Below are positions 10,736 through 39,920 of a DNA stretch of 55,871 bases, piece by piece. Within the stretch, counting starts at the first letter, position 1, and every line of letters starts with the position of its first letter. Below the pieces are notes generated by a model. The model was not told where the DNA came from. It made no database searches and was given only the letters and a program-made list of their open reading frames with translations. Origin of the DNA: Firmicutes bacterium UBA5324. Lineage in GTDB: Bacteria > Bacillota > Negativicutes > UBA11029. The position numbers were made by a program, and so were the translations under genes. Location: NCBI GenBank assembly GCA_002411145.1, contig DHRA01000012.1:39883-95753 (forward strand), written 5' to 3'.

Positions 10736-10751
10736 AAATAGAGTTTACAAA

Positions 10752-12077: not shown

Positions 12078-12105
12078 GGCAAGGAGTAGCTTGCCCTATT
12101 TTTTC
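12075..12105 (+). terminator. Intrinsic terminator after ddl
   Basis: TAGGGCAA / TTGCCCTA stem plus T-run. The stem includes the ddl stop codon. Confidence 0.75.
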
Positions 12106-12205
12106 TTTGTTTTTTTAACTCATAGCGCTGTTCTTGTCATCTGACGGGGGCGTGAATCTGTGATAAACTTTACATAGTATGTTGACTAAAAAAAGGAGAA
12201 TGATC

Positions 12206-12670
12206 ATGCGCAAAATAATTATGTTATGTTTGACGTTGGCATTAACGGCAGGGTTAATTGCCGGATGCGGCGGCGGGGGAAAAGGCATGCAGAGATTGAC
12301 CGGCCTGTCGCCGGAGCAGGTTGTCGCTACTTTCCAGGACTTGGCCAAGCATCAGAAATATACAGAAGCGGCTTTATATGTTTCCCCGGTTTCTTTGGCG
12401 TCGCTTAGTGTAAGTAATTTTCTGAAGGATGATTTGGGCTTGAGTAATGTTGCGTCCTCCAATCTTTTGTCCGTCAGGCAGCTTGGGCAGAGCGGTGATT
12501 TTGCAGTGGTGCTGGCGACCCTGCAGGATGGTGTGAATACCTCTAATATTTCCGTGAAGGTAATAGGGCTGGAGAGGATAAAGGGCGAATGGTATATTGT
12601 CGATAACGATACCATTGCCCGGGAGGCAAAATATCGCTTACTGCAAGATTTAATCAGCAACGTTTTGTAG
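12206..12670 (+). CDS. Putative lipoprotein, unknown function
   Basis: Signal peptide MRKIIMLCLTLALTAGLIAGC with lipobox IAGC. ATG 12206 sits 7 nt after AGGAG; the ORF-track start is 12179. Confidence 0.6.
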   Translation: MRKIIMLCLTLALTAGLIAGCGGGGKGMQRLTGLSPEQVVATFQDLAKHQKYTEAALYVSPVSLASLSVSNFLKDDLGLSNVASSNLLSVRQLGQSGDFAVVLATLQDGVNTSNISVKVIGLERIKGEWYIVDNDTIAREAKYRLLQDLISNVL

Positions 12671-12680
12671 GATTTTTAAA

Positions 12681-12720
12681 AAAACTCTCGAATTGGATAA
12701 TACACCAGTTCGAGAGTTTT
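12681..12720. terminator. Bidirectional-looking intrinsic terminator
   Basis: AAAACTCTCGAA / TTCGAGAGTTTT 12-bp stem flanked by an A-run and a T-run. Confidence 0.75.
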
Positions 12721-12857
12721 TATCATACAAATTAGGTAACACCCACTTCTATAAGTGGGTGTTACCTTGCTGACTTCTTCAGGTGGAGTAGAGTCTTTAC
12801 CTGAAGCCCCGAAGTCTGGCAAAGCCAGACGAGTTCACTAGAGAGCAGGTTGAGCGG

Positions 12858-13313
12858 ATGGATAACAGCGAGTTGCAGCAATTGGTTGAAACGGTTTCGG
12901 AGCAGTGGTTTCAGAAACCCTTTTTGCATACAGCCATCTTTAATGCCCGTCTGCGTACGACCGCAGGGCGTTATATATACGGACCGCACAGAATAGAAAT
13001 CAATCCCCGTTATCATGTTTTACACGGTCCCGCGGAATTGATCAGTACGATAAAACATGAACTTTGCCACTATCATTTAGCCCGGGGGAAACGCCCCTTT
13101 AAGCATAGTTCGCCGGAATTCAAGCTTTTATTGGCGAAAGTGGGGGCGGACCTTTACGCATTACCCAGTCCGGAGTTGGCGAATATGCGGCACTGTGTGT
13201 ATTCCTATGTCTGTGCGCAATGCTGTCACGTCTATCGTCGCGCCCGCCGTATCAATACCCGGCGCTATGTCTGCGGAAAATGCCGCGGCAGGCTGCTGTT
13301 GCGGGAAAGCTGA
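12858..13313 (+). CDS. SprT-like zinc metalloprotease family protein
   Basis: HExxH motif (IKHELCHYHL) plus a C-terminal Cys-rich zinc ribbon (CAQCCH...CGKCRG). Confidence 0.7.
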   Translation: MDNSELQQLVETVSEQWFQKPFLHTAIFNARLRTTAGRYIYGPHRIEINPRYHVLHGPAELISTIKHELCHYHLARGKRPFKHSSPEFKLLLAKVGADLYALPSPELANMRHCVYSYVCAQCCHVYRRARRINTRRYVCGKCRGRLLLRES

Positions 13314-13348
13314 ACAAACCCCGGGGGAGTGCGAAATGGACCGGGCTG

Positions 13349-13774
13349 TCAGGATTTGAGAAATGCGATACCGGCGACAATTAAGACGGCGCCGGTAATT
13401 TTAGACCAGGTCATGCTTTCACCGAACAGTAACACGGCCAGGAGAACCGTGAGCAGCGGGAAAGAACCCGTCAGCGGCACGATGCGGGATGCCTCGCCGA
13501 ATTTTAAAGCATAGAAATAGGCCAGATGGCCCAATAGACCGGCGAAAATACCCGCTATCCCCACAAATATCAGGGAACGAAGGTCGGCCTGAAACAATTC
13601 CGGCAAACGCCCGGCCCCCAGGAGATAAAGAAACAGGCAAAGCGAAATCGCGAAGCTGCGTAGGGTAATGGCAATGGTGGGATCAAGTTTGATCAGACCC
13701 AGCTTTTCCAGGATGGGTGCGCTCCCCCACAAAACAATCGTCACGAAGGCGAAGAAATATGCTTGGATGGCCAC
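13349..13774 (-). CDS. Small EamA/DMT-family membrane transporter (single EamA domain)
   Basis: 141 aa, 4-5 hydrophobic helices, EamA-like pattern (VLWGSAPILEK ... LLFGE). GTG start behind GGAGG. Confidence 0.6.
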   Translation of the reverse strand: MAIQAYFFAFVTIVLWGSAPILEKLGLIKLDPTIAITLRSFAISLCLFLYLLGAGRLPELFQADLRSLIFVGIAGIFAGLLGHLAYFYALKFGEASRIVPLTGSFPLLTVLLAVLLFGESMTWSKITGAVLIVAGIAFLKS

Positions 13775-13968
13775 ACTAAATACCTCCTAAAAGTTATACG
13801 GGAGTATGGTTAACGTCATGGTGCCGTAACAGAGGCTCTTTGTTTTAGGCGGCTTCAAAAGCAAGAAGCCCACGCTAACGTTTTTTTTATTCGTATAGGA
13901 AAGATATCCATGGGGAAGGGAATTCCAACTCCCCATTCCCCATTCCCGAAAGCCGCGCAGCGGTTTTT

Positions 13969-15741
13969 TTAATTTCCCCGGCCGGCAATTTCGGTAATGG
14001 CTTCGTCCGGCGTCACATAGAGGGTGTGCTGCTGTTCGTAAATAACGAAGCCGGGTTTGGCCCCGGAGGGCTTATGCACATGCTTGCGCAGCGTATAGTC
14101 GACCGGCACCTGTGAGGAGAAACGGGATTTACTGAAATATGCCGCCAGTTTAGCCGCCATTTCCAGTGCAGCTTGAGAAGGCTCCCCGGTTTGCATCCGG
14201 AGGATAACATGGGAACCGGGGATATCTTTGGTATGCAGCCAGATATCCTGATTACGGGCCAGTTTAAAGGTTACGTAATCGTTCTGTTTATTATTTTTGC
14301 CCACGTATATTTCGCTCCCGTCGGGGGCGGTGAAGCGTAACGGTTTAACAGCAGGAGCCGCCGCACGTTTTTGGGGTTTGCCGGTCGGTGCAGGCGGGGG
14401 GAGATAGCTTTGTTCCGTCAGTTCAAAGCGGATCTCCTGGAGATCGGACTTGCTTAATGCATCCTCCAACTGGAGCAACACGGTTTCCAGATACTCAATC
14501 TCCCTGTCCGTTTCTGCGATTTGCTGTTCAAGAATGTCTATGCTGCGTTTGGCTTTGGCATACCGGTGGTAATAATGCTGGGCGTTTTCCACCGGGGAAA
14601 GCTTTGGATCAAGACTGATCGTTATTTCTTGCTGTGCGGGGTCGTAGTAGTTTTGCACGGTAATCTCCCTTTGCCCCTTGCGGATTAAGCCGATATTGGC
14701 TGTGAGCAGATCACCGAGAAGTTTTAGCTCTGCGGCTTGACGCGCCGTGGCTAATTCACTCCGCTGCAGCTGTAATTTTCGCTCAGCCCGCTGGCTTTCA
14801 TTGCGCAGCAGTTTGCGCAAGGCATCCTTTCCCGGAATTGATCTGATCCGTTCGGCCCGAAAAAAGACGTCCATTGCCTGGGCCATGGAAGGATAATGCC
14901 GGTGTTCCGTATCAGGATACTGCAGCAGATCATAACAGGCAAAATCGATGACCCCACCCCCGTGGGGAGGAAAGATGACCGTGGGCTGATAATGATGCTG
15001 CTGCAGACAGGACATGAATTGGAGAAAAACAGCGGCAAGCCGCTCCTGTTGCGCGGGGTTTAAAGAGCGGGCCGTAGTCTCCGGGGGAAGTCCGGCGCGG
15101 GCGATAATTTCCCGGGCCGTACCCGGTCCCAGCCCCATGAAGGACTGGACAAGCAAATGGGCGATTTTTTGCTGCGCATCGGCGGTAACCAAGGCGGAAA
15201 GCACCCTTTCCCGGCAGGCTGTAAAAGGGTTGTCTTTTGCCTGGAAAGGCGGGGCCACGTACCGGCGGCCCGGCAATAATTCCCGATGACGATTGAGCGA
15301 TCCGGGAATGCGATGCAACGCATCCAGCATCAGCAGCTGATTGTCAAGGAGTATGACGTTGCTGTGCCTGCCCATTATTTCCACCACCAGGGTGCGGGCC
15401 GTAACGCCTCCCTCCTCACTCCAGTTTTCCACGCTCAGGTGTACCGTTCTATCCAGTCCCTGCTGTGCGATGGCGGCAATCCGTCCACCCTCCAGATACT
15501 TGCGCAGCAGCATGCAGAAAGCCGGCGGGGCAGCGGGATTTTCCGGCGCTAAATCCGTCAAATGCATCCGGGCTTGCTGCGGGTCGCCGTTTATGAGCAG
15601 CTGCAAATTTTTTCCGGGCACCCGGATAAGCAGGATAATAGTCTGGCGGTCAGGCTGAAAAACCTTGTCTATCCGCCCTCCAACCAATTGCCTATGTAAT
15701 TCGTATACAACGGAATTTAACACGATACCGTCCAGTGCCAT
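13969..15741 (-). CDS. rqcH: Ribosome quality-control factor RqcH (NFACT / fibronectin-binding protein A family)
   Basis: 590 aa. NFACT-N start MALDGIVLNSVVYELHRQLVGGRIDKV, a coiled-coil middle region, and a C-terminal DUF814-like IWLHTKDIPGSHVIL. Confidence 0.85.
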   Translation of the reverse strand: MALDGIVLNSVVYELHRQLVGGRIDKVFQPDRQTIILLIRVPGKNLQLLINGDPQQARMHLTDLAPENPAAPPAFCMLLRKYLEGGRIAAIAQQGLDRTVHLSVENWSEEGGVTARTLVVEIMGRHSNVILLDNQLLMLDALHRIPGSLNRHRELLPGRRYVAPPFQAKDNPFTACRERVLSALVTADAQQKIAHLLVQSFMGLGPGTAREIIARAGLPPETTARSLNPAQQERLAAVFLQFMSCLQQHHYQPTVIFPPHGGGVIDFACYDLLQYPDTEHRHYPSMAQAMDVFFRAERIRSIPGKDALRKLLRNESQRAERKLQLQRSELATARQAAELKLLGDLLTANIGLIRKGQREITVQNYYDPAQQEITISLDPKLSPVENAQHYYHRYAKAKRSIDILEQQIAETDREIEYLETVLLQLEDALSKSDLQEIRFELTEQSYLPPPAPTGKPQKRAAAPAVKPLRFTAPDGSEIYVGKNNKQNDYVTFKLARNQDIWLHTKDIPGSHVILRMQTGEPSQAALEMAAKLAAYFSKSRFSSQVPVDYTLRKHVHKPSGAKPGFVIYEQQHTLYVTPDEAITEIAGRGN

Positions 15742-15900
15742 GCAACAGCCTCCCTCGGGATTTCTTGATTTAGTATATCACATCCGGGGAACCGGACACT
15801 AGGGAACTCAAAGCGCAGGCACAGTTATTTGGTATGATTTCCCTGCACGGTGAATAAAATTAATTTGACGATGAATATATTTTATCCGTGGGGTGAGAGA

Positions 15901-18648
15901 ATGGAAGAGAACTGGCATGCGCTGGACAAAGATTCGGTGATTAGCCTGCTCAAAACGGATCAGTTTGCAGGACTGTCCGCCCATGAGTTTCAAAGCAGGC
16001 TGGCTGCTTTGGGGTATAACGAACTGGTGGAGAAACAAAAAACGCCCCTTTGGAAAATGCTGCTTACCCAGTTTCAGGATTTCATGGTACTCGTGCTGCT
16101 TGGCGCCACGCTTGTGTCGGCTTTTTTAGGAGAATACAGTGATGCGGTTACCATTATGGCCATTGTTGTGGTCAATGCCATATTGGGCTTCGTGCAGGAG
16201 TACCGGGCGGAAAAATCCCTCGAGGCATTAAAACAGTTAACGGCGCCTTTTTCCCGGGTCATACGCGGCGGCATAGAGCAAAAGGTGCCGGCCCGGGAAC
16301 TTGTGCCCGGCGATATTATTGTCATTGAAGCCGGTGACCGGCTGCCGGCGGACGGGCGGCTGATTGAGGCGGTAAACCTGGAAATAGAAGAGGCCGCTTT
16401 AACCGGTGAGTCGGTGCCTGTGCGGAAGACAGCAGACAGGGTTTACACGTGGGATACCGGTTTGGGTGATCAGAAGAACATGGTTTTTGTGGGTACCAGT
16501 GTAACCCGGGGCAGGGGTCTCGCGGTCCTTACCGCCACCGGCATGGGCACGGAAATGGGCCGGATCGCGGGCATGATTCAAGCGGCGGAAGAACAGGATA
16601 CGCCGCTGCAGCGCCGCCTGGATCAACTGGGCAAATATCTGGTGTGGGGCTGCCTGGGTGTTTGTGGAGTTGTGGTCTTAACCGGTATTGTCCGGGGGGA
16701 GTCCATTTTTTTGATGGCCATGTCCGGCATTAGTCTGGCGGTGGCAGCGATCCCGGAAGGATTACCGGCCATTGTAACGGTGGCGCTGGCATTGGGCGTG
16801 CAAAGAATGATTAAACGCAATGCCATTGTCCGCAAATTACCCGCGGTGGAGACTTTGGGGTGTACCACGGTGATCTGCTCCGATAAAACGGGCACCCTGA
16901 CGCAAAATGAAATGACGGTGCGGAAAATATTTACCTCTGCCGGTGTGGTCTGCCTTTCGGGAAGCGGCTATGATCCCCGGGGGCAATTTTTGCGGGGCAA
17001 GCAGGAGTTCAATCCGCGCGGGGATAAAGCCCTGTACTGGACGCTGCTGATTGGCACCCTTTGCAATAACAGTAAAGTGGCGCAAGACGGCAGCTCCCTG
17101 GCCGGTTTATGGCGCAAGGCCACAGGGAAGCAGGCGCCGCAATGGTCGGTCCATGGCGACCCCACGGAAGGGGCGCTGGCGGTGGCCGGTGCCAAAGCAA
17201 ATTTATGGCGGGAACAATTGGAGAAAGAGCAGATACGCATCGCGGAGAACCCCTTCGAATCTGAGCGAAAATGCATGTCCGTCGTGTATAAAAATTTGGC
17301 GGGAAGCAAAACAGCCTATGTGAAGGGCGCGCCTGACACCATTGTAAATTTGTGCAGTTATCTATTCATCGAGGGTAAAGAAATTCCCCTGCATGATCAA
17401 TGGAAAGAGAAAATACTGGCGGCAAACGATGAAATGGCCAGTGAGGCCTTGCGCGTATTGGGCATGGCCTATAAACGCATGCCGGATAACCGGACGGATT
17501 TCAGTGCGGAAGAGGTGGAGCGCGGCTTGACCTTCGTGGGACTGGCGGGGATGATCGATCCGCCCAGGGAGGAAGTTAAACAGGCCATTGCGGTATGTAG
17601 GAAAGCGGGCATTAAGACCGTGATGATTACCGGCGACCACCGGAATACGGCGCTGGCCATTGCCCGGGAACTTAACATGGCGGAAGAAGCAGGAAAAGCC
17701 CTTTCCGGGGCAGAATTAGAGCAGTTAAGTGATGCGGAACTGGGAAAAACCATCGCTAAGGTTTCTGTTTTTGCGCGGGTTTCACCTACGCATAAACTGC
17801 GGATTGTCCGGGCGTTGAAACAAGCCGGGCATATTGTGGCCATGACCGGGGACGGGGTGAACGATGCGCCCGCCGTTAAGGAAGCGGATATTGGGATTGC
17901 CATGGGCAAAACCGGCACGGAAGTAACAAAAGAGGCCTCGGCCATGGTTTTGGCCGACGATAATTTCGCGACCATTGTGGCGGCGGTGGAAGAGGGACGG
18001 GGCATTTATGATAATATCAGGAAATTTATCCGTTACTTGCTGGCCTGTAATATCGGGGAAGTACTCACGATGTTCATCGCTACGCTGGCAGGTTTGCCGA
18101 TTCCCATTCTGCCGATTCAAATCCTGTGGGTAAACCTGGTGACTGACGGGTTGCCGGCCATGGCGCTGGGAGTGGAACCGATTGATGCAGACATCATGTG
18201 CCGTACGCCGCGTCATCCCCGGGAAAGTGTGTTCTCCCGCGGTTTAAAGCGAAAAATAATTTGGCGGGGAGTACAAATCGGTCTTAGCACGGTGGGGGTT
18301 TTTCTGGCTGCGCTGTACACGCGGGATAACATGGACCTGGCCCGGACCATGGCTTTTACCACCCTGGTGGTTTCCCAATTGATGTATGTTTTTGACTGTA
18401 AATCGGAAATTCGCAGTATTTTTGAAACGAACATTTGCAATAATATGTACTTGATAGCGGCGGTGTGCTGTTCCTTATCGATGCAGCTCATGGTTATCTA
18501 CATACCTTTTTTGCAGGTCTGTTTCAACACGGTGCCGTTGGATTTTGCGGACTGGGCAATTGTTTTGCTGGTTTCCGGCTGGACCTTTATCACGGGATAC
18601 GCCCGCCGTCTGTTGGGCGGCCACACCTGCAAAATGTCCTATCGGTAA
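15901..18648 (+). CDS. Calcium-translocating P-type ATPase (SERCA/PMCA-like, P2A type)
   Basis: CSDKTGTLT phosphorylation site, IPEGLPA, TGDGVNDAPA and 10-TM architecture. Start taken at ATG 15901 behind GGGGTGAG; the ORF-track start is 15850. Confidence 0.85.
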   Translation: MEENWHALDKDSVISLLKTDQFAGLSAHEFQSRLAALGYNELVEKQKTPLWKMLLTQFQDFMVLVLLGATLVSAFLGEYSDAVTIMAIVVVNAILGFVQEYRAEKSLEALKQLTAPFSRVIRGGIEQKVPARELVPGDIIVIEAGDRLPADGRLIEAVNLEIEEAALTGESVPVRKTADRVYTWDTGLGDQKNMVFVGTSVTRGRGLAVLTATGMGTEMGRIAGMIQAAEEQDTPLQRRLDQLGKYLVWGCLGVCGVVVLTGIVRGESIFLMAMSGISLAVAAIPEGLPAIVTVALALGVQRMIKRNAIVRKLPAVETLGCTTVICSDKTGTLTQNEMTVRKIFTSAGVVCLSGSGYDPRGQFLRGKQEFNPRGDKALYWTLLIGTLCNNSKVAQDGSSLAGLWRKATGKQAPQWSVHGDPTEGALAVAGAKANLWREQLEKEQIRIAENPFESERKCMSVVYKNLAGSKTAYVKGAPDTIVNLCSYLFIEGKEIPLHDQWKEKILAANDEMASEALRVLGMAYKRMPDNRTDFSAEEVERGLTFVGLAGMIDPPREEVKQAIAVCRKAGIKTVMITGDHRNTALAIARELNMAEEAGKALSGAELEQLSDAELGKTIAKVSVFARVSPTHKLRIVRALKQAGHIVAMTGDGVNDAPAVKEADIGIAMGKTGTEVTKEASAMVLADDNFATIVAAVEEGRGIYDNIRKFIRYLLACNIGEVLTMFIATLAGLPIPILPIQILWVNLVTDGLPAMALGVEPIDADIMCRTPRHPRESVFSRGLKRKIIWRGVQIGLSTVGVFLAALYTRDNMDLARTMAFTTLVVSQLMYVFDCKSEIRSIFETNICNNMYLIAAVCCSLSMQLMVIYIPFLQVCFNTVPLDFADWAIVLLVSGWTFITGYARRLLGGHTCKMSYR

Positions 18649-25257: not shown

Positions 25258-25283
25258 TATTATTTCGCTTCAGCTTAATTTTG

Positions 25284-25320
25284 CGACAAGGAAGAACATT
25301 TCTTCCTTGTCGTTTTTTTT
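25284..25320 (+). terminator. Intrinsic terminator after the FIST gene
   Basis: CGACAAGGAAGA / TCTTCCTTGTCG 12-bp stem followed by T8. Confidence 0.85.
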
Positions 25321-25424
25321 ATGGATAGGCCGGGATGAGAAAAGGCGCATTTTTCGACCCGAGGCAGGTGAACGACTTTCCTATGGCGTACTTAATGGGA
25401 GAGTGTATATTGGGAGGCCGATAG

Positions 25425-27431
25425 ATGATAAGCACAGCCAGGCACGTGATGTTTTGCGGTCCGACGGGATCAGGGAAAACGGCGCGGATGCTTGATACCT
25501 ACCATACTTTACTGGGAGAAGGGATTTCTTCAGATTTCATACAGGTTTTAGTCCTTAACCGGCATCAGGCGGCCTGGTTTAAAGACCAGGTAAAAATGAA
25601 CCGAAGCGGGGCGCTGCAGGTCAACACCTATTTTTCTTTCATACAACGGGAATTACGGCGGTTTTGGCATGTGGCGGAAGCAGGGCTGGACGAAGGACAA
25701 CCGGTTTTGGAACCGGTGTTTCTCACGATGGAAACGGCCCAATATTTAATGGAACTTTGTATCGGGGAAATGCGTAGCCAGGGGCGTTTTTCCGCGGAAA
25801 ACTTTCGCTCTCAACCTGCCAGGATGGCGCTGCAATTAACGGAAACAATGCAAATTGCCGCTGTTTCCTGTCTGGACGCCCGGGAAATCGCCGAACGTCT
25901 GCAAAAGGCATGGGAAGGTAAAGGAGAGGCTCCGGCCGTATATGACGATGTGCGGGCCACGCTTGAATTGTACCGTCGCCGGTGTTTTGCCGGCCGGATG
26001 CTTGATTACGCCTTATCTCTTGAACTATACAACGGCGTGCTGCTGAAAAATGAAGATTATCAGCAATGGCTGCAGCATAAAATACGGCATTTGCTGGTCG
26101 ATGACACGGAGGAGATATTGCCGGCGGCTTTTAAATTTATCATGAAGGTGTTGCCGCATGTGGAATCGGCGACTTTTGCTTATTGTACAGATGGGGGACA
26201 CAGTGTGTTTTTCGGCGCCCATCCGGAACTGGCAACAAAGGAATTAATGCCCCGCTGCACGGTTGAAAAACTCACCCCTTCCTATACTTCCTCGCCGGAC
26301 TGTGGAGCATGGGGAGCGTCTTTGGCAGCGCGGGTAAAGGGCCATAAAGCGCCAATGATTCCCCGGCGTGTGGTCATGCATCACGTGGTGGAAGATTTAC
26401 GGGGCACCATGATTGAACGGGTGGGTGATCACCTGCTGCAACTCCTGGCAACGGGTGTGGCGCCAAATGAAATAGCGGTAGTTGCGCCTTTTGTGGACAA
26501 GGTGTTGGAGCATCAATTGTCATCTCTGCTCGGTTTGCATGGTTGTGCGATAGCACATGTATCCGGCAGTAAACGGTTGCTTGATCTGCCCTTTGCCGGT
26601 ACATTGCTTACATTATTGCAGTTAACGCATCCACAGTGGCGGCTATATCCCACCACCGGTGATATTGCCCAGGCCCTGAACGTGTTGTTGGCCCTGGATC
26701 CTGTACGCAGCATGCTTTTGGCCGCATACGCGCAAGGTGAGGAGTGGGGTGAACTGACGGACGCCAATGTGCGCGCCCGCATCGGTTATGCCGCGGTGCA
26801 GGGGTATGATTTTCTGCGCCGGCATTTAGCCGCCCTGCGGGAGCCGGCTGCCCTCGCCGAAGTCGTGCAGAAGATTTTTACGGAACTTCTCTATCCCCTA
26901 AACCCTTCGCCGTCCAACTTGCAGGGTTGCCGGTATCTGACGGAAGCGGCGCGGCACTTTCAGGCTTTTTCCGCTGCCGCAGCGCTGGGGGAAGACAGCG
27001 GCTGGCATTTCATGCAAATGATCCAGCGGGGTACCATCGCTGCCGACAGGCTAGCCGCGCCCGCCTTGGAAGGTGGAGCGGTGGTCCTTATTACCGCCTA
27101 TTCCTTACTCATGGATAAGGGCAATACCTTCGCATATCAGTATTGGCTCGACATTTCCCGAGATGCCTGGTATCGCAGCGATGCAAAAGAATTAACCAAT
27201 CCGCATGTGCTCTCCCTGCGTTGGCAGGAGGGACAGGTTTGGACAAATTTCCTTAACGAAGAATTGCGCCGGGAAAAAGCGGCCCGCACTGTATTAGGAC
27301 TTTCACATCGCTGCCGGACGGCGATCATTGCCGCGGAAAGCGCTTGTGACAGTTATGGCTCCGAACGGGAAGGAGAATTGGCGGCCTTGATTGCGGAAAT
27401 GTCTGGACAAAGGGGAAAACAGGATGATTGA
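25425..27431 (+). CDS. AddB-like degenerate SF1 helicase-fold P-loop protein (no nuclease domain)
   Basis: 668 aa. Walker A GPTGSGKT at residues 12-19 and a Walker B-like LLVDDTEE. The remaining UvrD motifs are not recognisable, and a motif VI remnant lies near the C-terminus. GGGAGG RBS. Confidence 0.6.
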   Translation: MISTARHVMFCGPTGSGKTARMLDTYHTLLGEGISSDFIQVLVLNRHQAAWFKDQVKMNRSGALQVNTYFSFIQRELRRFWHVAEAGLDEGQPVLEPVFLTMETAQYLMELCIGEMRSQGRFSAENFRSQPARMALQLTETMQIAAVSCLDAREIAERLQKAWEGKGEAPAVYDDVRATLELYRRRCFAGRMLDYALSLELYNGVLLKNEDYQQWLQHKIRHLLVDDTEEILPAAFKFIMKVLPHVESATFAYCTDGGHSVFFGAHPELATKELMPRCTVEKLTPSYTSSPDCGAWGASLAARVKGHKAPMIPRRVVMHHVVEDLRGTMIERVGDHLLQLLATGVAPNEIAVVAPFVDKVLEHQLSSLLGLHGCAIAHVSGSKRLLDLPFAGTLLTLLQLTHPQWRLYPTTGDIAQALNVLLALDPVRSMLLAAYAQGEEWGELTDANVRARIGYAAVQGYDFLRRHLAALREPAALAEVVQKIFTELLYPLNPSPSNLQGCRYLTEAARHFQAFSAAAALGEDSGWHFMQMIQRGTIAADRLAAPALEGGAVVLITAYSLLMDKGNTFAYQYWLDISRDAWYRSDAKELTNPHVLSLRWQEGQVWTNFLNEELRREKAARTVLGLSHRCRTAIIAAESACDSYGSEREGELAALIAEMSGQRGKQDD

Positions 27432-29613
27432 ACTACGGAAGGGTCAGCGTGAAGTGGCGGCGTATCGGGGAGGAATGCTGGCGGTGCCGGCGGTGCCCGG
27501 CGCGGGGAAAACGACGGTGCTTGCCTACCTGGCCTCCCAGTTAATAGAGGAAGGCTGCGTCGGACAGGGTAATATTCTTATTGTAACTTACATGACTTCC
27601 TCCGTAGCCAATTTTAAAGCGCGTATTGCCGGTTTTCTTGAAGGAAGGGGCTTACCCAAAACTAAAGGCTACGAGGTGCGTACCCTCCACTCGCTGGCCA
27701 TAAATATATTGAAGGAGCGGCCTGATCGGATATTTCTGCCGGAAGAATTGCAGGTAATTGATGAACTGGACCGGGAAAGAATTATCAAAAGCTTTACTCT
27801 GGCTTGGATCGATACTCATTTTGCTGTCTGGAAAGGGCTGATTAAAACCCCGGAGACGGGCGGCGGTTATGAGCAGCATCTGGAGGACTGGAAAAAAGAA
27901 ACCGTCAAATTGGTCAAAGAGATGATTGGTCAATTTAAGAGCAGTAGTATTTCCGCCAAAGAAGCGACGGAAAAAACCGCCTGCTTGACCGAAACGTCCT
28001 TTTTGCGCTGGTGTGCGGAGATTTACGGACAATACCAGCAATGGCTCATTCAAGCCGGCGCCGTGGATTTTGAAGATATGCTGCAGCAGGCGGCGCAGTT
28101 GCTGAGGGAGGATCAGGAACTGACAGCCCGGTTGCGCAGCCGCTGGTGCTATATTTTTGAGGATGAAGCCCAGGATTCCAATCCCCTGCAAGAAGAAATC
28201 TTAATGTTGCTGGCCGGAAAGGAAGGTAATTTATTGCGGGTTGGCGATAGTAACCAGGCGATAATGGGTACTTTTACCAATGCCGAACCGGAGTTGTTCC
28301 GGCGGTTTTGCCGGGGCACCGCCAACCAGCCGATCCTGACGGCCAGCCGCAGCAGCAGAGATATCATTGACCTGGCGAATTATCTTGTGGAATGGGCATG
28401 TACCAGGCAGCCGGAAATTTCGTGCCGGCGGGCGCTGGCCGACCAACGCATTTGTCCTGTTCCTCCGGAGGATAAGTTTCCTAATCCGGCACCGGCGGAA
28501 TATTTGATCGCGGCGCCCAGTTTTGCCAGCGATACGGAAGAAATTCAGCGAATTTGCCAGCACGCGGTAAATTATGCGGCGGCTAATCCGCATAAAACTT
28601 TAGCCATCTTAGCACCCGCAGAATACATGCTGCGGGAAGCCACGCAAATGCTGAGCGGTATGGGAGCAGAATACTATGAGTTGACGCGTCTGCCGCGGGA
28701 ACGGCAGAGAACGGCGGAGGATTTGGCGGCTATCCTGTCCTTTTTGGCCCGTCCCCAGGATAACCGGTTGTTTATCAGGATGCTGCTTCAATTACTGCCC
28801 TCCCTGGCGGAACATGAATATCACGGTCTTTGCAGCTGGCTGGAGAGAGAGCATTTAGAGGAAGTATTTGATCAACTGCGTTTGCCTGCTTTCTTACGGA
28901 AGTTTCCCGCCGCGTTTATGATCCTGCCGGTCTGGCGGGAGTTGGAGGGTATCCTGTGTGCCGTGCGGAATTGGCTGGAAGCGCTTTATTTATCTCCAGA
29001 CGCCTTAACGCTGTACATTGCCGATCAGTTGACGCTGTGCCGGGAGGAACGGGAAATAGCCGCCCGCATGGCCTTGGATATGAAAAGCAGGTTGACGCAG
29101 AATCCTGCTTTGCGTTTGGATACCTTGCTGCTGGAAATGGATGCCGTGAAAAATACCGGCAATAAATTCGCCAACATTGTATTTGAGCGGCGGGGCTATA
29201 CACCTAAGCCCGGTGTGATCAATTTGGTAACCTGCCATAAAGCTAAAGGGCTGGAGTGGGACATGGTATACGTCATCGGGACCACGGGCGTTGAATATCC
29301 CACTTCACTGCAGGATAAAATCCGCAGTGAAGTATGGTTTTTGCATGATTTTGCCGCTAATCCGGCGGCGCTGGCGAAGGCGGAATTACGCTCCCTGTTT
29401 TTCGGGGAAAGCTGTCATGATCCGCTTATTGCGGCGAAGACAGAGGTGATTTGTGAACGTCTCCGTTTGTTGTATGTGGCTGTTACCAGGGCCAGGGAAA
29501 GTTTAATCATCAGTACCCACCGGATGACCAGTAAATTCAATCGTAAAATAAGACCGTCGGCGGCCCATGAGGCACTCCGCCGGCACATCGAGGAGCGGAG
29601 GACGAGACGATGA
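27424..29613 (+). CDS. UvrD/PcrA-type SF1A DNA helicase (AddA-like, lacking a nuclease domain)
   Basis: Motif I AVPGAGKTT, motif II FEDEAQDSN, motif III VGDSNQAIMGF, motif V CHKAKGLEWDMVYVIG and motif VI LLYVAVTRARESL. ATG 27424 overlaps the upstream stop (ATGATTGA). Confidence 0.8.
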   Translation: MIELRKGQREVAAYRGGMLAVPAVPGAGKTTVLAYLASQLIEEGCVGQGNILIVTYMTSSVANFKARIAGFLEGRGLPKTKGYEVRTLHSLAINILKERPDRIFLPEELQVIDELDRERIIKSFTLAWIDTHFAVWKGLIKTPETGGGYEQHLEDWKKETVKLVKEMIGQFKSSSISAKEATEKTACLTETSFLRWCAEIYGQYQQWLIQAGAVDFEDMLQQAAQLLREDQELTARLRSRWCYIFEDEAQDSNPLQEEILMLLAGKEGNLLRVGDSNQAIMGTFTNAEPELFRRFCRGTANQPILTASRSSRDIIDLANYLVEWACTRQPEISCRRALADQRICPVPPEDKFPNPAPAEYLIAAPSFASDTEEIQRICQHAVNYAAANPHKTLAILAPAEYMLREATQMLSGMGAEYYELTRLPRERQRTAEDLAAILSFLARPQDNRLFIRMLLQLLPSLAEHEYHGLCSWLEREHLEEVFDQLRLPAFLRKFPAAFMILPVWRELEGILCAVRNWLEALYLSPDALTLYIADQLTLCREEREIAARMALDMKSRLTQNPALRLDTLLLEMDAVKNTGNKFANIVFERRGYTPKPGVINLVTCHKAKGLEWDMVYVIGTTGVEYPTSLQDKIRSEVWFLHDFAANPAALAKAELRSLFFGESCHDPLIAAKTEVICERLRLLYVAVTRARESLIISTHRMTSKFNRKIRPSAAHEALRRHIEERRTRR

Positions 29614-30419
29614 AGGAACATCTGCAGGAAATGTATTTTAGCCAGGCGGCGTTGGCGGCGTATCAGACATGCGCCCTGAAATTTCGCTATCGTTATCTGG
29701 ATGAACTGTACTGGTTGCAAACCGGGCATGCCGGTGGGCATGCGGAAGAACGCGCCCTGGGCGAAAGCTTCCATTTAATGGCACAGAGGTATTTTCAAAA
29801 TGTTGCCCCGGACTACCTGGACGCGATTAAACCTTCGGCGCAGCTTAAGGTCTGGTTGAACAGCCTGCGGGAAAAATTCCCCCTGCGGGACGAATTGCGC
29901 TATTACCCGGAACAGGAGTTGCGTACGGTAATAGAAAAGGCTCGTTTTACCGCGAAATATGACTTGCTTGTCCAGTACCCCGACGGACGGATTATCATCT
30001 ATGATTGGAAAACCCAGGCCAGTCCCGGCCCGGGACGGACGCGTCCTTTGCAGGCGCGGGTTTATGCTTTGGTACTGTATACGGCGGAACCCTTTGGTAA
30101 ACGCCGGCCTGAGGATATCACGACGGTTTTTTGGAATCCAAGATTTCCGGGGGATGAGCAGGTTTGGCCTTACAGCAGGTTGCTCTATGAGCAGGACCGG
30201 GCGGAACTGACCGCGCTTGTTGGCAAAATAACCGACCTGCAGTACGGTGATTTCTCCGGCTTGCGGCCGGCGGAGGACGGCTCTGCCAAGGGGTGCCGGT
30301 GGTGTGAATACGCCGCTTTATGTAACGCCGGGGGACAAGTGGCAAATGCCGGACCTTTGCCGTCACCCGGGGATGTTTCCTGGGATGATGTTGAAGAAAT
30401 TGCTTATGAAGAGGCATGA
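29610..30419 (+). CDS. Cas4/AddB-type PD-(D/E)XK nuclease with 4-Cys (Fe-S) signature
   Basis: 269 aa. C21 in YQTCALKFRYRYL, then GESFH, D118, the D132-W-K134 (IYDWKT) motif, Q148xxxY152, and C229-x2-C232-x5-C238. ATGA overlap with the helicase stop. Confidence 0.75.
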   Translation: MKEHLQEMYFSQAALAAYQTCALKFRYRYLDELYWLQTGHAGGHAEERALGESFHLMAQRYFQNVAPDYLDAIKPSAQLKVWLNSLREKFPLRDELRYYPEQELRTVIEKARFTAKYDLLVQYPDGRIIIYDWKTQASPGPGRTRPLQARVYALVLYTAEPFGKRRPEDITTVFWNPRFPGDEQVWPYSRLLYEQDRAELTALVGKITDLQYGDFSGLRPAEDGSAKGCRWCEYAALCNAGGQVANAGPLPSPGDVSWDDVEEIAYEEA

Positions 30420-30420
30420 T

Positions 30421-32739
30421 ATGGAGACAAAAAAGAAATGGCAAATTCCCGCACCTATCCGTATTCCGCCGGAGCTGATTGCGGCGGCGGGGGATGCGGT
30501 GGTCGGGGAAATACTGTACCGGCGCGGGTATACGACGGTCGACCGGATTGAGGATTTTTTACAAAAGACCTATACGGTCTGTGACTTTGCGGGGCATGAG
30601 CTGCTGATTCCTCTGGTGGGGCGGATTGAACAGGCTGTGGCGGCGCAGGAGAAAATCACCGTTTACGGCGACTACGATGTGGACGGTATTACGTCCACAG
30701 CATTATGGATCCAGACTTTGCGCTGCCTGGGGGCGCAGGTGTCCTATCACGTACCGCATCGTTTCGATGAAGGCTACGGGATTAATGCCGATGTCATACG
30801 CGCATTGGCCGCAGCCGGGACCAGGCTCATCATCACCTGTGACTGCGGGATAAGCAATGCCGCGGAAATTGAAGAGGCAAGGGCCCTGGGTATTGATGTG
30901 CTGGTCACCGATCATCATGAATTGCCTGCCAGGCTGCCTGCTGTGCCCATGTTTAATCCCAAAATGCTGCCGCCTGACCACCCGGCTTTCATGTTGCCCG
31001 GTGTGGGCGCAAGTTTTATTGTGGCTAAAGAACTGCTGCGGCGGGCGGGGAAGGAAGCCTTGGCAGACGGATTACTGGACCTGCTGGTTCTGGGGATTAT
31101 GGCTGATGTTGTTCCTTTGACCAAAGACAACCGCTGGTATCTGAAAAAGGGGCTGCCCCGTCTGCTGGCTTCCGAGCGCCCGGGCCTGAAGGCATTGTTG
31201 GGGCTGGCCCGGATTCATCCCGTCTACGGTACCGAAGAGGATATTGCTTTTCAGGTAATCCCTCGTTTAAATGCCGCGGGGCGGTTGGATTCGGCTTCGT
31301 TGGCGGTTGAACTGATGCTGACCTCCGACCTGCCCACGGCGGAGAAACTGGCCGCGGAACTAAATAGACTGAACGAAATCCGCAAAGTGCTTTGTGAGGG
31401 AATGCTGCGGGAAGCTGCGGGACAATTACAGGAGCAGGGCGATGTAGCAGCCATTGTTTTATATAAAGACGATTGGCATGAGGGCGTAATGGGGATTGTG
31501 GCGGGGCGTTTGGCCGAGCAGTTTGCGACGCCCGCGCTGCTCATGACCCGTAAGGAAAATGGCCTCATCACCGGCTCCGCCCGGTCCGGGGGGACCATAA
31601 ATATCTTCCAGGTATTGCTGGCCTGTCAGGATTTACTGGTGAAATTCGGCGGGCACGAGGGGGCTGCCGGGTTTGCTTTACAAGCGGAGAATCTGGCCCG
31701 GTTCAGGGAGAGAGTTATCCGGACAGTCAGGGAAACCGCGTCGGGAGAAGAAGAAGCGCAAATAGTCGATGCGGTCTTGTGCCCGTCCCAGGTTAATCTG
31801 GATTTTTATAAGCGGGTGAGGGAGATAGGGCCTTTTGGTGCGGGAAATCCTGCACCGGTGTTCTGCCTTGACGGGGAACTTATCAGCAATCAACTGCTTA
31901 AAACAGGCTCCGCCCATCGCCGCCTGCGTTTTGCCGGAAATGGCCATACGGCTGAGGCTGTTTGGTGGCATAGCGGGCAAACCGTAGTTGACGGAAGTGA
32001 GCGGTTTTTTGCAAAATTGCGGCTGAATGTGTATCGGGATAATGTCAGTCTGCAACTGGATATTCAGGATGCTATCGCAACAGCATCCTGCCAGCAACTG
32101 TCCCCCGTCGGCCAACTGATAGATATGCGCGGGCGGGACGGAGACGAATTGGAGGCCTTGTTTCCGCAAGCGCTTTTTTTCGGCGAAGGAGTGATGCAAA
32201 ATGGTGTGTCGCGGCTGGCAGTGTCGCTCTGCGACACGCTGGTCATGCTGACCGTTCCCCCCAGTGGGGCTATCTGGGGGGAAATTCTCCGGAAAGTCGC
32301 CCCGCGCCGGATTGTTTTGGCCTGGAAGACGGAAAAAAATGAAGAACGGGAGCTGCTTGTCCACGCCTGGCAACAACTGCGGGGCATAATTAAATATGCT
32401 TTACGCATGTATAAGGGCGTGATAACTCCCCGGCGCGCGGCCGCGCGGCTGGGTTGGACCGGGGAAATGGTCACCGCCGGGCTGCAGGCTTTGGCGGACG
32501 TGGGCCTTATTCAGATAGCACCCCTTGCTGATGATAAGCTGAGGCTGTCTTTCTGCCCTGAGGAATTGCCGAATTTGCGCAATCTCCGGGTTTGTCGCTA
32601 TTTTTCGAAAATGTACATTGATATGGAAGCGTATCGTGATTACGTGAAAGTATTACCGGTAAATAAAATAACGGAAGAACTGGAGAGTTATTTGCATGGC
32701 AGCCGGGAGGAAAGAGAAGCGGCATGGCCCCCGGGCTGA
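30421..32739 (+). CDS. recJ: Single-stranded-DNA-specific 5'-3' exonuclease RecJ (DHH/DHHA1)
   Basis: 773 aa from ATG 30421, 1 nt after the nuclease stop. Motifs VYGDYDVDGITS, CDCG, VTDHH, GIMADVVPL and the DHHA1 motif GGHEGAAGF. The ORF-track start 30247 lies inside the previous gene. Confidence 0.85.
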   Translation: METKKKWQIPAPIRIPPELIAAAGDAVVGEILYRRGYTTVDRIEDFLQKTYTVCDFAGHELLIPLVGRIEQAVAAQEKITVYGDYDVDGITSTALWIQTLRCLGAQVSYHVPHRFDEGYGINADVIRALAAAGTRLIITCDCGISNAAEIEEARALGIDVLVTDHHELPARLPAVPMFNPKMLPPDHPAFMLPGVGASFIVAKELLRRAGKEALADGLLDLLVLGIMADVVPLTKDNRWYLKKGLPRLLASERPGLKALLGLARIHPVYGTEEDIAFQVIPRLNAAGRLDSASLAVELMLTSDLPTAEKLAAELNRLNEIRKVLCEGMLREAAGQLQEQGDVAAIVLYKDDWHEGVMGIVAGRLAEQFATPALLMTRKENGLITGSARSGGTINIFQVLLACQDLLVKFGGHEGAAGFALQAENLARFRERVIRTVRETASGEEEAQIVDAVLCPSQVNLDFYKRVREIGPFGAGNPAPVFCLDGELISNQLLKTGSAHRRLRFAGNGHTAEAVWWHSGQTVVDGSERFFAKLRLNVYRDNVSLQLDIQDAIATASCQQLSPVGQLIDMRGRDGDELEALFPQALFFGEGVMQNGVSRLAVSLCDTLVMLTVPPSGAIWGEILRKVAPRRIVLAWKTEKNEERELLVHAWQQLRGIIKYALRMYKGVITPRRAAARLGWTGEMVTAGLQALADVGLIQIAPLADDKLRLSFCPEELPNLRNLRVCRYFSKMYIDMEAYRDYVKVLPVNKITEELESYLHGSREEREAAWPPG

Positions 32740-32817: not shown

Positions 32818-33105
32818 ATGTTTGAAGTGGGCGATGCCGTGCTGCTGCCTCCTGAATTCGGCAGGGAAAAGAAAGGTGTTCTTGCGCGCAAAGAGCCGGA
32901 TGGATACTGGTTGGTGCAAATAGGTACAGCAGGCTATAAGTTCATGCCGGAGAAGGATTTACGGCCCCTTGGCAAGGTCGCCAAATGCTGGCGCTGCGGC
33001 GCCCAATTTACCCCTGACGACCGCGGGGAAAAAATGTCCGTCTGTCCGGTATGCGGAGCATGGGACCGCAGGAAACACCGGGCGAAGGATACGCCTGACT
33101 CTTAA
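32818..33105 (+). CDS. Hypothetical zinc-ribbon protein (95 aa)
   Basis: Strong GGAGGTGG RBS. The C-terminal half carries CWRC...CPVC, and the N-terminal half looks SH3/KOW-like (GDAVLL...). Confidence 0.55.
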   Translation: MFEVGDAVLLPPEFGREKKGVLARKEPDGYWLVQIGTAGYKFMPEKDLRPLGKVAKCWRCGAQFTPDDRGEKMSVCPVCGAWDRRKHRAKDTPDS

Positions 33106-33554
33106 AAAAGAGCTTTACCGGTCCTGGCCGGTAGCCTGTCAGGTTTGATTTTACAGTCGGCAAAAAGCTTTGTATCACCGTGTTTCGGTTGTATATGCCG
33201 ACCAGAGGGAACCTGATGGGCTGCCATGGGTCAGGTCACCTTGGCTTTTTGCCGCCCAGGGGATTTTACCGTGGCGGGAAATTAACGGGCGGGCAGTGGT
33301 TCTTTATCCGGTAATTAGCAGAATAAAGGCGCTTTGAAAAAATATTTTCGCCAAAATGAAAATTAAAACTTGTAAAATAAATGTTTTTTGTTAATATGTA
33401 TGATAGTAGAAAAAATGAAGCGGGATTTTTTAATTCTTTTTTCGAGAGAATGTTGTATAATTTATTTTAAACGACATTACGCAGTTCTTTATTTTATGTT
33501 GTAAAGCAGGAGCAGTTTACAGCAAAAAATAAAATATAAAGTAAGGAGAATGCA

Positions 33555-34382
33555 ATGGAAATAAAACAGATTAAAAAGCTAAAATTATACGGCTTCAATA
33601 ATTTAACGAAAACACTTAGTTTTAATATGTATGATATATGCTACGCAAAAACGCCGGAACACAGAAACGCTTATATTGAGTATATTGATGATCAATATAA
33701 CGCCGACAGGCTGACAGATATATTAACCAAGGTATCAAATATTATCGGCGCAAACATTCTTAATATCGCCAAACAGGATTATGATCCCCAGGGAGCCAGT
33801 GTTACAATGCTGATTTCTGAGGGTACGGTGTTAAGTGAGCAAGCCGGCGAACTGGAATTGTCCAACGGCGATGAACAACCCGGTCCCTTGCCTGACGGCG
33901 TGGTCTGTCATTTGGACAAAAGCCATATTACGGTGCATACCTATCCGGAAAGCCATCCGCATGACGGCATTAGTACGTTTCGCGCGGATATTGACGTTTC
34001 TACCTGCGGTTTAATTTCACCGCTCAAAGCATTAAATTTCCTGCTGCACAGTTTTAACTCCGACATTGTGACCATAGACTACCGTGTAAGAGGTTTTACA
34101 CGGGATGTTGACGGCAAGAAATATTTTATTGATCATAAGATAAATTCCATTCAAAACTATATTGGCAGTCAAATGCGTGATTTATATCAAATGATAGATG
34201 TAAATGTTTATCAAGAACATATTTTCCATACTAAAATGCTCTTAAAAGAATTTGATCTGGACAACTACTTGTTTGGTACGGGCAAGAAGGACCTGATGCC
34301 CGGTGAAAAGAAAAAGATCAAACAGCGCCTGAAAAAAGAAATGGCCGAAATATTTTACGGCAGAAACATTCCCAGGGTCTAG
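33555..34382 (+). CDS. speD: S-adenosylmethionine decarboxylase proenzyme, enterobacterial (E. coli SpeD) type
   Basis: Colinear with E. coli SpeD as recalled: [26 protein letters not shown], the self-cleavage site HLDK|[10 protein letters not shown], and [21 protein letters not shown]. Confidence 0.88.
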
Positions 34383-34394
34383 GCGTTAAGTAAA

Positions 34395-34429
34395 GGGGAA
34401 CGTATGGCTTAACTGCGTTTCTCTTTTTT
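34395..34429 (+). terminator. Possible intrinsic terminator after speD
   Basis: GGGGAACG / CGTTTCTC stem (2 G-U pairs) followed by T6. A competing GTTAAG/CTTAAC pairing overlaps it. Confidence 0.35.
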
Positions 34430-34508
34430 GGTCTATCTGCACGGCGCAGCGCGACAGACAACATAGTTTCTTATCGGCTGGCGACGGTGCCCGGACCGTC
34501 CTTGGCCG

Positions 34509-35426
34509 ATGAACAAAATACGGGGAGGGTTGCTTATTAATTTTCAGCCGGTACGATTAGAAGATAAGGAACTATTGAACGCCTATTTGCAGGAACGGCG
34601 TTATGAGGGATCCGAGTGTAACTTTACAAATTTCTTTATGTGGCAGAAACCCTATCGCATTGAATGGGCACTCAGCCATAACTGTTTGTGTATAAAAGCA
34701 TCCCATCGCGGTTTAACCTATATGTTGGCGCCCTTTGGCCGGGAAGAGCAGTATGAGGCGGCACTTGCGGAAATGCAAAGCTATTTTCAGCGACAGGGTC
34801 TGCCCTTTTTGCTAAAACTGGTGACCCGTGGGACAGCGGAAGTGTTGGCGCAATTGAAACCGGGAGCTTTTGTTTTCCGGGAAGACCGTGATAATTACGA
34901 CTATGTATACCGGGCGATAGATTTATGCGAGCTTAAGGGGCGTAATTACCACCGTAAAAGAAACCATATCAAAAAGTTCATGGAAGCCTATCCGGACTTC
35001 GAGTATCGTCCGCTTACGGCGGACCTGGTGCAGGCCTGCATAGAAAACGAACTTGAATGGTGTGAGAAACGGGAATGTGATGAGGACCCGAGTCTTCGGT
35101 GCGAGAAATTTGCGGTCATGGAGGCTCTGGAAAATTTTTCCGCTCTGGATTATACCGGCGGATTAGTATTGATCAATGGAAAGGTTGAGGCTTTTACTTT
35201 AGGTGAACAGCTGAACAATGATACGGCGGTTATTCATGTGGAAAAGGCAAATCCCGATATCAGGGGGATTTATAATGTTATTAACCAGCAGTATTGCCGG
35301 CAGAACTGGCGGGAAATGGCCTATATCAACCGGGAGGAGGATATGGGTATAGCAGGTTTGCGGATGGCGAAGGAAGCCTATTATCCGGTCATGATGATTG
35401 AGAAGTATGATATTACCCTTCGTTAA
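34509..35426 (+). CDS. DUF2156 domain protein (stand-alone homolog of the MprF/LysX C-terminal aminoacyl-transfer domain)
   Basis: Pattern ECNFTNFFMWQKPY..., about 300 aa with a double GNAT-like layout. The start codon is uncertain because no clear RBS precedes ATG 34509. Confidence 0.6.
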   Translation: MNKIRGGLLINFQPVRLEDKELLNAYLQERRYEGSECNFTNFFMWQKPYRIEWALSHNCLCIKASHRGLTYMLAPFGREEQYEAALAEMQSYFQRQGLPFLLKLVTRGTAEVLAQLKPGAFVFREDRDNYDYVYRAIDLCELKGRNYHRKRNHIKKFMEAYPDFEYRPLTADLVQACIENELEWCEKRECDEDPSLRCEKFAVMEALENFSALDYTGGLVLINGKVEAFTLGEQLNNDTAVIHVEKANPDIRGIYNVINQQYCRQNWREMAYINREEDMGIAGLRMAKEAYYPVMMIEKYDITLR

Positions 35427-39784: not shown

Positions 39785-39920
39785 CTCTCACATCAAGAGA
39801 CGGCGGAGGGACTGGCCCGATGAAGCCCGGCAACCATTTGTCACTGACAAAAACGGTGCCAATTCCTGCAGGGGACACCTGACAGATGAGAGGGAGAAAA
39901 GGCTTTTCTCTCCTCTTTTG
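39785..39920 (+). promoter_or_regulatory. SAM-I (S-box) riboswitch with intrinsic terminator
   Basis: ATCAAGAGACGGCGGAGGGACTGGCCCGATGAAGCCCGGCAACC...GGTGCCAATTCC...GATGAGAG matches the S-box core. The terminator is GAGGGAGAAAAG/CTTTTCTCTCCTC plus TTTT (39888-39920). Confidence 0.9.

Follow-up and report, generated by a model that had tools for sequence, protein, structure and literature searches.

Three classes of bacterial machine that process DNA ends at double-strand breaks (DSBs) have been described, namely RecBCD, AddAB and AdnAB. The nuclease of AddA cuts the 3'-ended strand, and the separate enzyme RecJ is a 5'→3' exonuclease of single-stranded DNA (ssDNA). Work from the Dillingham and Shuman laboratories has established that in AddAB and AdnAB the iron-sulphur (Fe-S) nuclease of the inactive-motor subunit cuts the 5' strand. 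RecBCD, AddAB or AdnAB is found in 88% of surveyed bacterial genomes, AdnAB being found in Actinobacteria only (PMC6452273), and RecBCD and AddAB are lacking in most cyanobacteria (PMC12094033; PMC5101192). Here we describe a block of four genes, i to iv, in a stretch of 55,871 nucleotides (nt) from Firmicutes bacterium UBA5324 (contig DHRA01000012.1, positions 39,883 to 95,753), which is referred to below as the window. On balance we think that the four genes encode one multi-subunit DNA-end-processing machine resembling AddAB, AdnAB and RecBC, and built from separate polypeptides. No description of the four-gene system as one machine was found in the searchable literature, in agreement with the initial annotation of this locus, which did not recognise the architecture as a described system.

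The features of the block and its upstream flank are as follows.

25283-25320, forward strand: intrinsic terminator of the upstream FIST gene, a stem followed by T8.
25412-25417, forward strand: ribosome-binding site GGGAGG of gene i, 7 nt 5' of the ATG, read from the sequence.
25425-27431, forward strand: gene i, an open reading frame (ORF) of 668 amino acids (aa) with a predicted SF1A (superfamily 1A) helicase fold and degenerate helicase motifs.
27424-29613, forward strand: gene ii, 729 aa from the ATG, a predicted intact UvrD-like SF1A helicase.
29610-30419, forward strand: gene iii, 269 aa, a predicted stand-alone Cas4-family PD-(D/E)XK "iron-staple" nuclease.
30421-32739, forward strand: gene iv (recJ), 772 aa, a predicted long RecJ.

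The genes are packed as the initial annotation had it, the coordinates and all three junctions being exact. As read from the sequence, genes i and ii overlap by 8 nt (ATGATTGA, 27424-27431), genes ii and iii overlap by 4 nt (ATGA, 29610-29613), and gene iii and recJ are separated by 1 nt (TGA-T-ATG, 30417-30423). Two protein lengths need correction: the 740 aa given for gene ii corresponds to an upstream TTG start at 27391, the ATG at the junction giving 729 aa, and RecJ has 772 rather than 773 aa. The overlaps and the short gap support translational coupling, and the reading of the four genes as a single tightly coupled operon. The strong terminator reported before the block is also present. 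It has a 14-bp stem (25283-25313) with 6 G-C pairs and a 3-nt loop, followed by T8; the block begins approximately 110 nt beyond it, and the operon is bounded by it on the 5' side. In 25321-25424 no sigma-70-like promoter was found above chance, and within the four genes neither promoter-like nor terminator-like matches exceed the frequency seen in shuffled sequence.

Gene i is the signature subunit of the module. Pfam returns a weak UvrD-helicase match alone (1.1e-5), there is no useful match in NCBIfam and no sequence-level match to AddB, and no Pfam or NCBIfam model covers the family. It had been described as having only Walker A and B left of a helicase. The AlphaFold2 model (predicted local distance difference test score, pLDDT, 84; predicted template modelling score, pTM, 0.83) changes this picture, because in Foldseek it matches complete SF1A helicases over approximately 700 columns, and the protein is therefore predicted to keep the whole four-subdomain SF1A fold, beyond the P-loop. 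The matches include UvrD1, Rep, UvrD and PcrA (E ~1e-20), chain B of AddB (query template modelling score, TMq, 0.60-0.62, with a root mean square deviation among the lowest listed), AdnB (TMq 0.64) and also AdnA.

The motifs of gene i suggest a protein that binds nucleotide and is no credible motor. Walker A is retained by about 92-94% of the family; among 159 aligned members its residues G12, G17, K18 and T19 are 82-94% conserved, the lysine also being lost in a few lineages. In motif II, the position of the catalytic Glu of UvrD (E221) comes after D226 and is taken by Asn (65%) or Asp (28%), and the Gln of motif III is lost as well. Gene i thus probably binds nucleotide and is probably not a motor, a pattern known from AddB, which supports the view that it behaves like the inactivated-helicase half represented by AddB, AdnA or RecC. 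An exhaustive profile search for the family (clustered at 50% identity) found 3,973 representatives at E<=1e-3, of which at least 564 reach E<=1e-30. Most of the 150 best representatives listed have 600-800 aa, which is too short to include a fused nuclease, and gene i itself ends at 668 aa with no nuclease domain in Pfam. A single distant member gives a weak match to ADDB_N. Genes i and ii were also considered as recent paralogues, which is rejected since they have no pairwise similarity.

Gene ii is, as first annotated, a predicted helicase with UvrD motifs and no nuclease domain. Pfam finds complete N and C domains (UvrD-helicase at 1.2e-46, and UvrD_C) and no nuclease domain, and motifs I, II (DEAQD), III (GDSNQ), V and VI are all readable. 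The NCBIfam models for the named helicases have cut-offs of 700-1150 bits, and gene ii scores far below these throughout: 143.7 bits for rep (cut-off 951), 136.7 for pcrA (911), 119.7 for uvrD (1144), 96.5 for addA_Gpos (707.65), 67.9 for addA_alphas (860.75), and 85 for recB, which is likewise far under its cut-off. By these scores gene ii appears to be orthologous to no named helicase; Rep, PcrA and UvrD are nearer to it, AddA and RecB further away. In PADLOC its matches to GajB are no more than those of a generic UvrD-like helicase, and GajA is absent; the locus is accordingly not a Gabija system by the PADLOC models.

Gene iii was annotated as a PD-(D/E)XK nuclease with a C-Xn-C-X2-C-X5-C signature, and this stands. 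Pfam identifies PDDEXK_1 (1.6e-22, 81 bits against a cut-off of 22), and the cysteines are C21 and C229-X2-C232-X5-C238. The residues C21, H55, E101, D118, D132-W-K134, Q148, Y152 and C229/C232/C238 are invariant in 37 homologues, so that the catalytic set D...DxK...QxxxY is intact and the four "iron-staple" cysteines are predicted to hold an Fe-S cluster. A single-sequence search of the PDB gave no match. In a profile search of the PDB, ACE1, a Cas4-family enzyme associated with Argonaute, was the best solved-structure match, the similarity being weak (E 4e-4, 16-19% identity). The AlphaFold2 model (pLDDT 84) gave the same answer in Foldseek, with ACE1 first (1e-7), followed by the AdnA nuclease domain (5e-6) and then Cas4 SSO0001, EXO5 and MGME1; AddB was not among the best 50 structural matches listed. 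PADLOC finds a resemblance to Argonaute-associated Cas4-like nucleases. No cas genes occur among the annotated neighbours, and a CRISPR-associated Cas4 is accordingly not indicated.

It is worth adding that gene iii ends in an acidic tail (residues ~241-269; window 30330-30419), with a conserved Trp and a terminal hydrophobic-x-F/L in all homologues. Examples of its endings are ...FDQIAEIAF and ...DWEQIPEAEL, and in the window it ends ...WDDVEEIAYEEA. The tail resembles the C-terminal peptide of SSB. The idea that it is a docking peptide specific for RecJ was rejected, because the tail is present in loci with and without an adjacent recJ alike and is therefore uncorrelated with it.

The identification of gene iv as RecJ is likewise upheld. 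It scores 453.1 bits against the RecJ model TIGR00644, for which the equivalog cut-off is 396.9, it has the Pfam domains DHH, DHHA1 and RecJ_OB, and the motifs DVDG, DHH and GGH are readable. It is thus a bona fide long RecJ, and a predicted 5'→3' ssDNA exonuclease. Solved RecJ structures align to residues 3-552 only, and residues 551-772 have no match in Pfam or the PDB. The C-terminal extension of about 220 aa is a common feature of the module, since 28 of 33 module-linked RecJs from other genomes align with the window RecJ past residue 690. A 2020 preprint claimed a "PIWI-like" C-terminal domain in a Bacillus RecJ; for gene iv neither Pfam nor the PDB supports such a domain.

Whether the linkage to recJ is kept in relatives had been set beforehand as a test of the proposal, and the gene order was found to recur across phyla. 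A scan of species-representative genomes identified 407 loci with gene i relatives, and the best 80 of these were scored for synteny by tblastn of the four window proteins. Among them, gene ii adjoins gene i in 20/20 loci of Latescibacterota, 3/3 of Gemmatimonadota and 34/45 of Chloroflexota (being nearby in 8 more). Gene iii is nearby in 16/18, 3/3 and 25/40 loci respectively, and recJ is present in 22/36 of the Chloroflexota loci, adjoining gene iii in 19. The complete set of i-ii-iii-recJ is found in Chloroflexota, and in the same order, with neighbouring genes overlapping or a few nt apart, in several cultured Bacillota, among them Halobacteroides halobius DSM 5150, Carboxydocella and Anoxybacter fermentans; the 8-nt overlap of genes i and ii is the same in Halobacteroides and Anoxybacter. 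The full order also occurs in one further genome of 4.8 Mb and on plasmid pSR56 of Salinibacter ruber, and a metagenome-assembled genome of Chitinophagales has ii-iii-recJ at a locus truncated by the end of the contig. Given that the order i-ii-iii, with or without recJ, recurs in distant phyla with overlaps or very short gaps, it is beyond chance, and the linkage to recJ is kept across phyla. The genes around the module are different in every genome compared.

The plasmid copy shows that the module can travel. Each of the four proteins on pSR56 has its closest match in Chloroflexota (40-47% identity), from which we conclude that the module moved as a block, RecJ included. The initial annotation had proposed a hybrid, modular end-resection machine; the cross-phylum synteny and the block transfer strengthen this part of it, and the version in which the parts are those of a split AddAB is unsupported, as discussed below.

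Several variant loci may be mentioned here. On pSR56 (Salinibacter ruber M8, 56 kb; positions 10001-17884 of the record) the complete module is near genes for a SocA-type antitoxin and a recombinase. Plasmid pILYOP01 of Ilyobacter polytropus, a replicon of 962 kb, carries a solitary gene i relative (902741-904714, 23% identity), with no helicase, nuclease or recJ adjoining. On a Desulfofalx-like contig (L093, 8861-13844), recJ is separated from gene iii by four unrelated genes, for PadR, a solute-binding protein, TauE and a heavy-metal P-type ATPase, which look like an insertion that split the module. At two loci, one in Latescibacterota and one in Gemmatimonadota (L003 and L004; 15688-16926 in L003), the triad is followed by a 412-aa ORF with RecJ_OB and the module-type C-terminal region (window RecJ 418-752) and without a DHH/DHHA1 core, preceded by a 227-aa ORF with no Pfam match. 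The 412-aa ORF may represent a recJ that has decayed or been split; an adaptor protein is the other possibility.

Independent genetic evidence may come from Synechococcus elongatus. In a random barcode transposon sequencing (RB-TnSeq) screen, disruption of ago, cas4, uvrD, recJcy, rpoD2 or Synpcc7942_0992 raised the maintenance of RSF1010, and natural transformation was also raised in the same six disruptions (Taton et al. 2023, PMC10653904). The fitness values were 2.24 for 0517, 2.26 for 0992, 2.39 for 2515, 3.39 for 2273 and 5.58 for ago (PMC10653904 supplement), those of 0992, 2515 and 0517 being near-equal. Synpcc7942_0517 (recJcy) is RecJ-like and has 775 aa (PMC10653904). Synpcc7942_0992 has 665 aa, is assigned to COG0210, and is divergent to pxcA. 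In cyanobacteria the gene i family has a branch that matches the window protein with 24% identity over 98% of its length (E 2e-29) and that in Microcoleus is likewise divergent to a CemA/PxcA gene, one source giving it the name "in cluster with PxcA". Because this branch matches gene i and has the same divergent PxcA neighbour, Synpcc7942_0992 is a probable homologue of gene i, as judged from family membership, length, COG assignment and synteny. By extension from 0992, we infer that the four S. elongatus genes are dispersed counterparts of the operon. The annotations of the cyanobacterial homologues (family P0017) are inconsistent, being "recombinase family protein" (NCBI), "membrane protein, in cluster with PxcA" and "proton extrusion protein PcxA".

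Parts of the module have been noticed before. In the relevant passages of Hudaiberdiev et al. (2017), predicted operons of unfused UvrD with a pfam12705 Cas4-like protein are described as "mostly Clostridiales" and in non-defence contexts, and a monophyletic group of solo-Cas4 is described in many Chloroflexi; a role in DNA repair was suggested. RecJ does not appear in that text, and those passages contain neither gene i nor the four-gene module.

The closest comparison is with AddAB of the Bacillus subtilis type. Both have one active SF1A 3'→5' motor with an inactivated SF1A-fold partner that keeps Walker A, both have an Fe-S "iron-staple" PD-(D/E)XK nuclease, and in both the gene for the inactive partner precedes that for the motor. 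They differ in that the module has its helicase and nuclease as separate polypeptides and a co-encoded RecJ, has one such nuclease rather than two, with no counterpart of the 3'-strand nuclease of AddA, and has no sequence-level orthology to AddAB. It is possible that the function of AddB is split over genes i and iii. Mycobacterial AdnAB similarly pairs two UvrD-like modules, in a heterodimer-like arrangement, and the AdnA nuclease domain is the closest match of gene iii among the end-processing helicase-nuclease machines. However, both Adn subunits have a fused nuclease and no RecJ is co-encoded, whereas genes i and ii lack a nuclease domain.

RecBC(D) resembles the module in having an active SF1A helicase, a partner with an inactivated helicase fold (RecC) and a single nuclease, and in its dual role in repair and in the degradation of foreign linear DNA. 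It is unlike the module in that the nuclease of RecB is joined to the helicase by a tether and lacks an Fe-S cluster, Walker A has been lost from RecC, and the SF1B motor RecD has no counterpart. The pairing of a helicase with 5'→3' removal of the 5' strand, and no 3'-strand nuclease, is shared with RecQ/UvrD plus RecJ (the RecFOR route) and with Sgs1/BLM-Dna2 plus Exo1, Dna2 also being an iron-staple nuclease. In the bacterial RecQ/UvrD plus RecJ route, however, the components are encoded separately and there is no degenerate-helicase partner, whereas the module is one coupled operon. Finally, gene iii is like solo-Cas4 and ACE1 in being of the Cas4 family, approximately 270 aa long and outside CRISPR loci; unlike ACE1, it has no pAgo gene adjoining.

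Starting from the gene structure, folds, motif states, conserved synteny and block transfer, which we regard as established, a mechanism can be proposed. The products of genes ii and i would pair as a heterodimer and engage a DNA end. Gene ii would be the sole active motor, tracking as an SF1A helicase 3'→5' on the 3'-ended strand and unwinding the duplex from the end, and gene i would be its degenerate partner, providing a scaffold and strand guidance as do AddB, AdnA or RecC. Gene iii would receive and cut the displaced 5' strand, and the long RecJ would then remove that strand processively, 5'→3'. Because the operon lacks a 3'-strand nuclease, the outcome would be a 3' ssDNA tail onto which RecA could load, and a Chi-type switch would not be needed. 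The role first suggested for RecJ, as a stand-in for the missing AddA nuclease, has to be abandoned, because RecJ has 5'→3' polarity and would act on the 5' strand like gene iii, whereas the AddA nuclease cuts the 3'-ended strand. The same activity could also destroy linear, replicating or poorly protected foreign DNA, like that of RecBCD and AddAB, and would therefore fit the cyanobacterial plasmid and transformation phenotypes. Complex formation, strand polarity and physiological role are in this proposal inferred by analogy with the known systems.

A number of observations weigh against a single four-subunit repair machine. In Latescibacterota (0/18) and Gemmatimonadota (0/3) recJ is not beside the triad, and in cyanobacteria (Microcoleus) gene i is solitary; RecJ would therefore be an optional or trans-acting component. 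Two nucleases for one 5' strand look redundant. There is no LexA/SOS box in 25314-25424, and matches across the window are at chance level. On the genetic side, the S. elongatus genes are putative orthologues of the window genes, and 2515 and 2273 were assigned to uvrD and cas4 by elimination. Synpcc7942_0992 has also been described with a PD-(D/E)XK-like domain (PMC10653904); contrary to this, Pfam finds no PD-(D/E)XK domain in the cyanobacterial gene i homologues.

The alternative that survives best, although we consider it unlikely, is that the module is a dedicated anti-mobile-element system, which destroys incoming plasmid, phage or transforming DNA and might make guide DNAs for Argonaute, repair not being its function. 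In S. elongatus the probable homologues keep plasmid maintenance and transformation down, as does ago; horizontal transfer has brought the whole module onto pSR56, where it adjoins a toxin-antitoxin gene and a recombinase; and PADLOC likens gene ii to GajB-type UvrD helicases and gene iii to Argonaute-associated Cas4-like nucleases. However, PADLOC has no model for gene i and no system architecture matching that of the module. Relatives of gene i are near-absent from plasmids (2/72,556), with none in 50,697 phage records or in IMG/VR, on which grounds a phage or plasmid origin was rejected. The module or its triad recurs across the loci of Chloroflexota, Latescibacterota and Gemmatimonadota. 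Its context is core genome and differs in each genome. In the window itself the genes include pyr genes, carB, ddl, rqcH, dapF, yicC, remA, gmk, rpoZ, coaBC, metK, priA and prkC, and it is ordinary core chromosome. The initial annotation had pointed to accessory-looking neighbours as a cue to defence, an argument that fails because the window is core chromosome and the neighbours are different elsewhere. The S. elongatus phenotype fits both readings, and cannot separate repair from defence because RecBCD and AddAB restrict foreign DNA and yet repair.

A second alternative, which we also judge to be quite unlikely, is an accessory of gaps or stalled forks. The module would then be a unit of the UvrD-RecJ type belonging to the RecFOR pathway, with gene iii trimming 5' flaps and gene i regulating the helicase. 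UvrD and RecJ cooperate in RecFOR-dependent repair in Deinococcus, and, as noted, AddA and RecB are further from gene ii than are Rep, PcrA and UvrD. In interpreting uvrD and recJcy, the authors of the S. elongatus screen appealed to stalled forks (PMC10653904). Against this, the combination of an active SF1A helicase, a degenerate SF1A helicase and an iron-staple nuclease is the hallmark of AddAB, AdnAB and RecBC, and the housekeeping UvrD and PcrA need no such partners.

That genes i-iii are simply an ordinary AddAB orthologue in pieces, with a housekeeping recJ adjacent by chance, is very improbable: the order of inactive helicase before active helicase does mirror addB-addA, gene i has AddB among its best structural matches, and there is the one distant family member with a weak ADDB_N match, but gene ii scores 7-8 times under the AddA and RecB equivalog cut-offs (96.5 against 707.65 bits for addA_Gpos), gene i has no sequence match to AddB and the 600-800 aa of most of the 150 best members of its family leave no room for a fused nuclease, the fold of gene iii is nearer to ACE1, AdnA, Cas4 and EXO5 than to AddB, the second nuclease is missing (Pfam finds one PD-(D/E)XK domain in the operon), and recJ is conserved in its linkage and was transferred with the triad.

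Downstream of the operon, three features of the window are of interest in their own right. A 95-aa ORF (32818-33105) begins 78 nt past recJ. It has a GGAGG site of its own, two CxxC pairs and weak matches to zinc ribbons, and is found in contigs of the same organism and not after recJ in the other genera examined. The region 33000-35000 has a guanine-plus-cytosine (GC) content of 0.42-0.44, compared with approximately 0.52 elsewhere, and contains a long AT-rich intergenic region, a speD-like S-adenosylmethionine (AdoMet, SAM) decarboxylase gene and an LPG_synthase_C gene. This stretch may be a recent acquisition. A SAM riboswitch (39787-39892, 83 bits), the only Rfam family found at gathering score in the whole window, lies upstream of metK, the listed ORF of which (start 39886) has its first 7 nt within the riboswitch.

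What is new here is a conserved module, apparently undescribed as a unit; its kind, helicase-nuclease end processing, is already known. Beyond the reading of the four genes as one end-processing machine, we suggest more tentatively, and without leaning towards it, that the module could represent a fourth class of bacterial DSB end-processing machine beside RecBCD, AddAB and AdnAB. An active motor of the UvrD type, a degenerate partner with the SF1A fold, an iron-staple nuclease (solo-Cas4) and a long RecJ dedicated to the module would be its four separate subunits. They would provide, for Cyanobacteria, Chloroflexota and the like, the resection and "exonuclease V-like" activity that is otherwise missing, and would feed the interference of cyanobacterial Argonaute with plasmids and transforming DNA. 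From the survey figure quoted at the start (PMC6452273), approximately 12% of bacterial genomes have none of the three known machines; by what route such bacteria resect breaks, and from where Argonaute obtains its guide DNA, are questions for which the module is a concrete candidate. If the proposal is true, it would give a functional context to "solo-Cas4" and to the long "cyanobacterial-type" RecJ paralogue, and would explain how four unlinked S. elongatus genes come to share one phenotype. Removal of the module could then raise the transformability of cyanobacteria and of anaerobic Bacillota.

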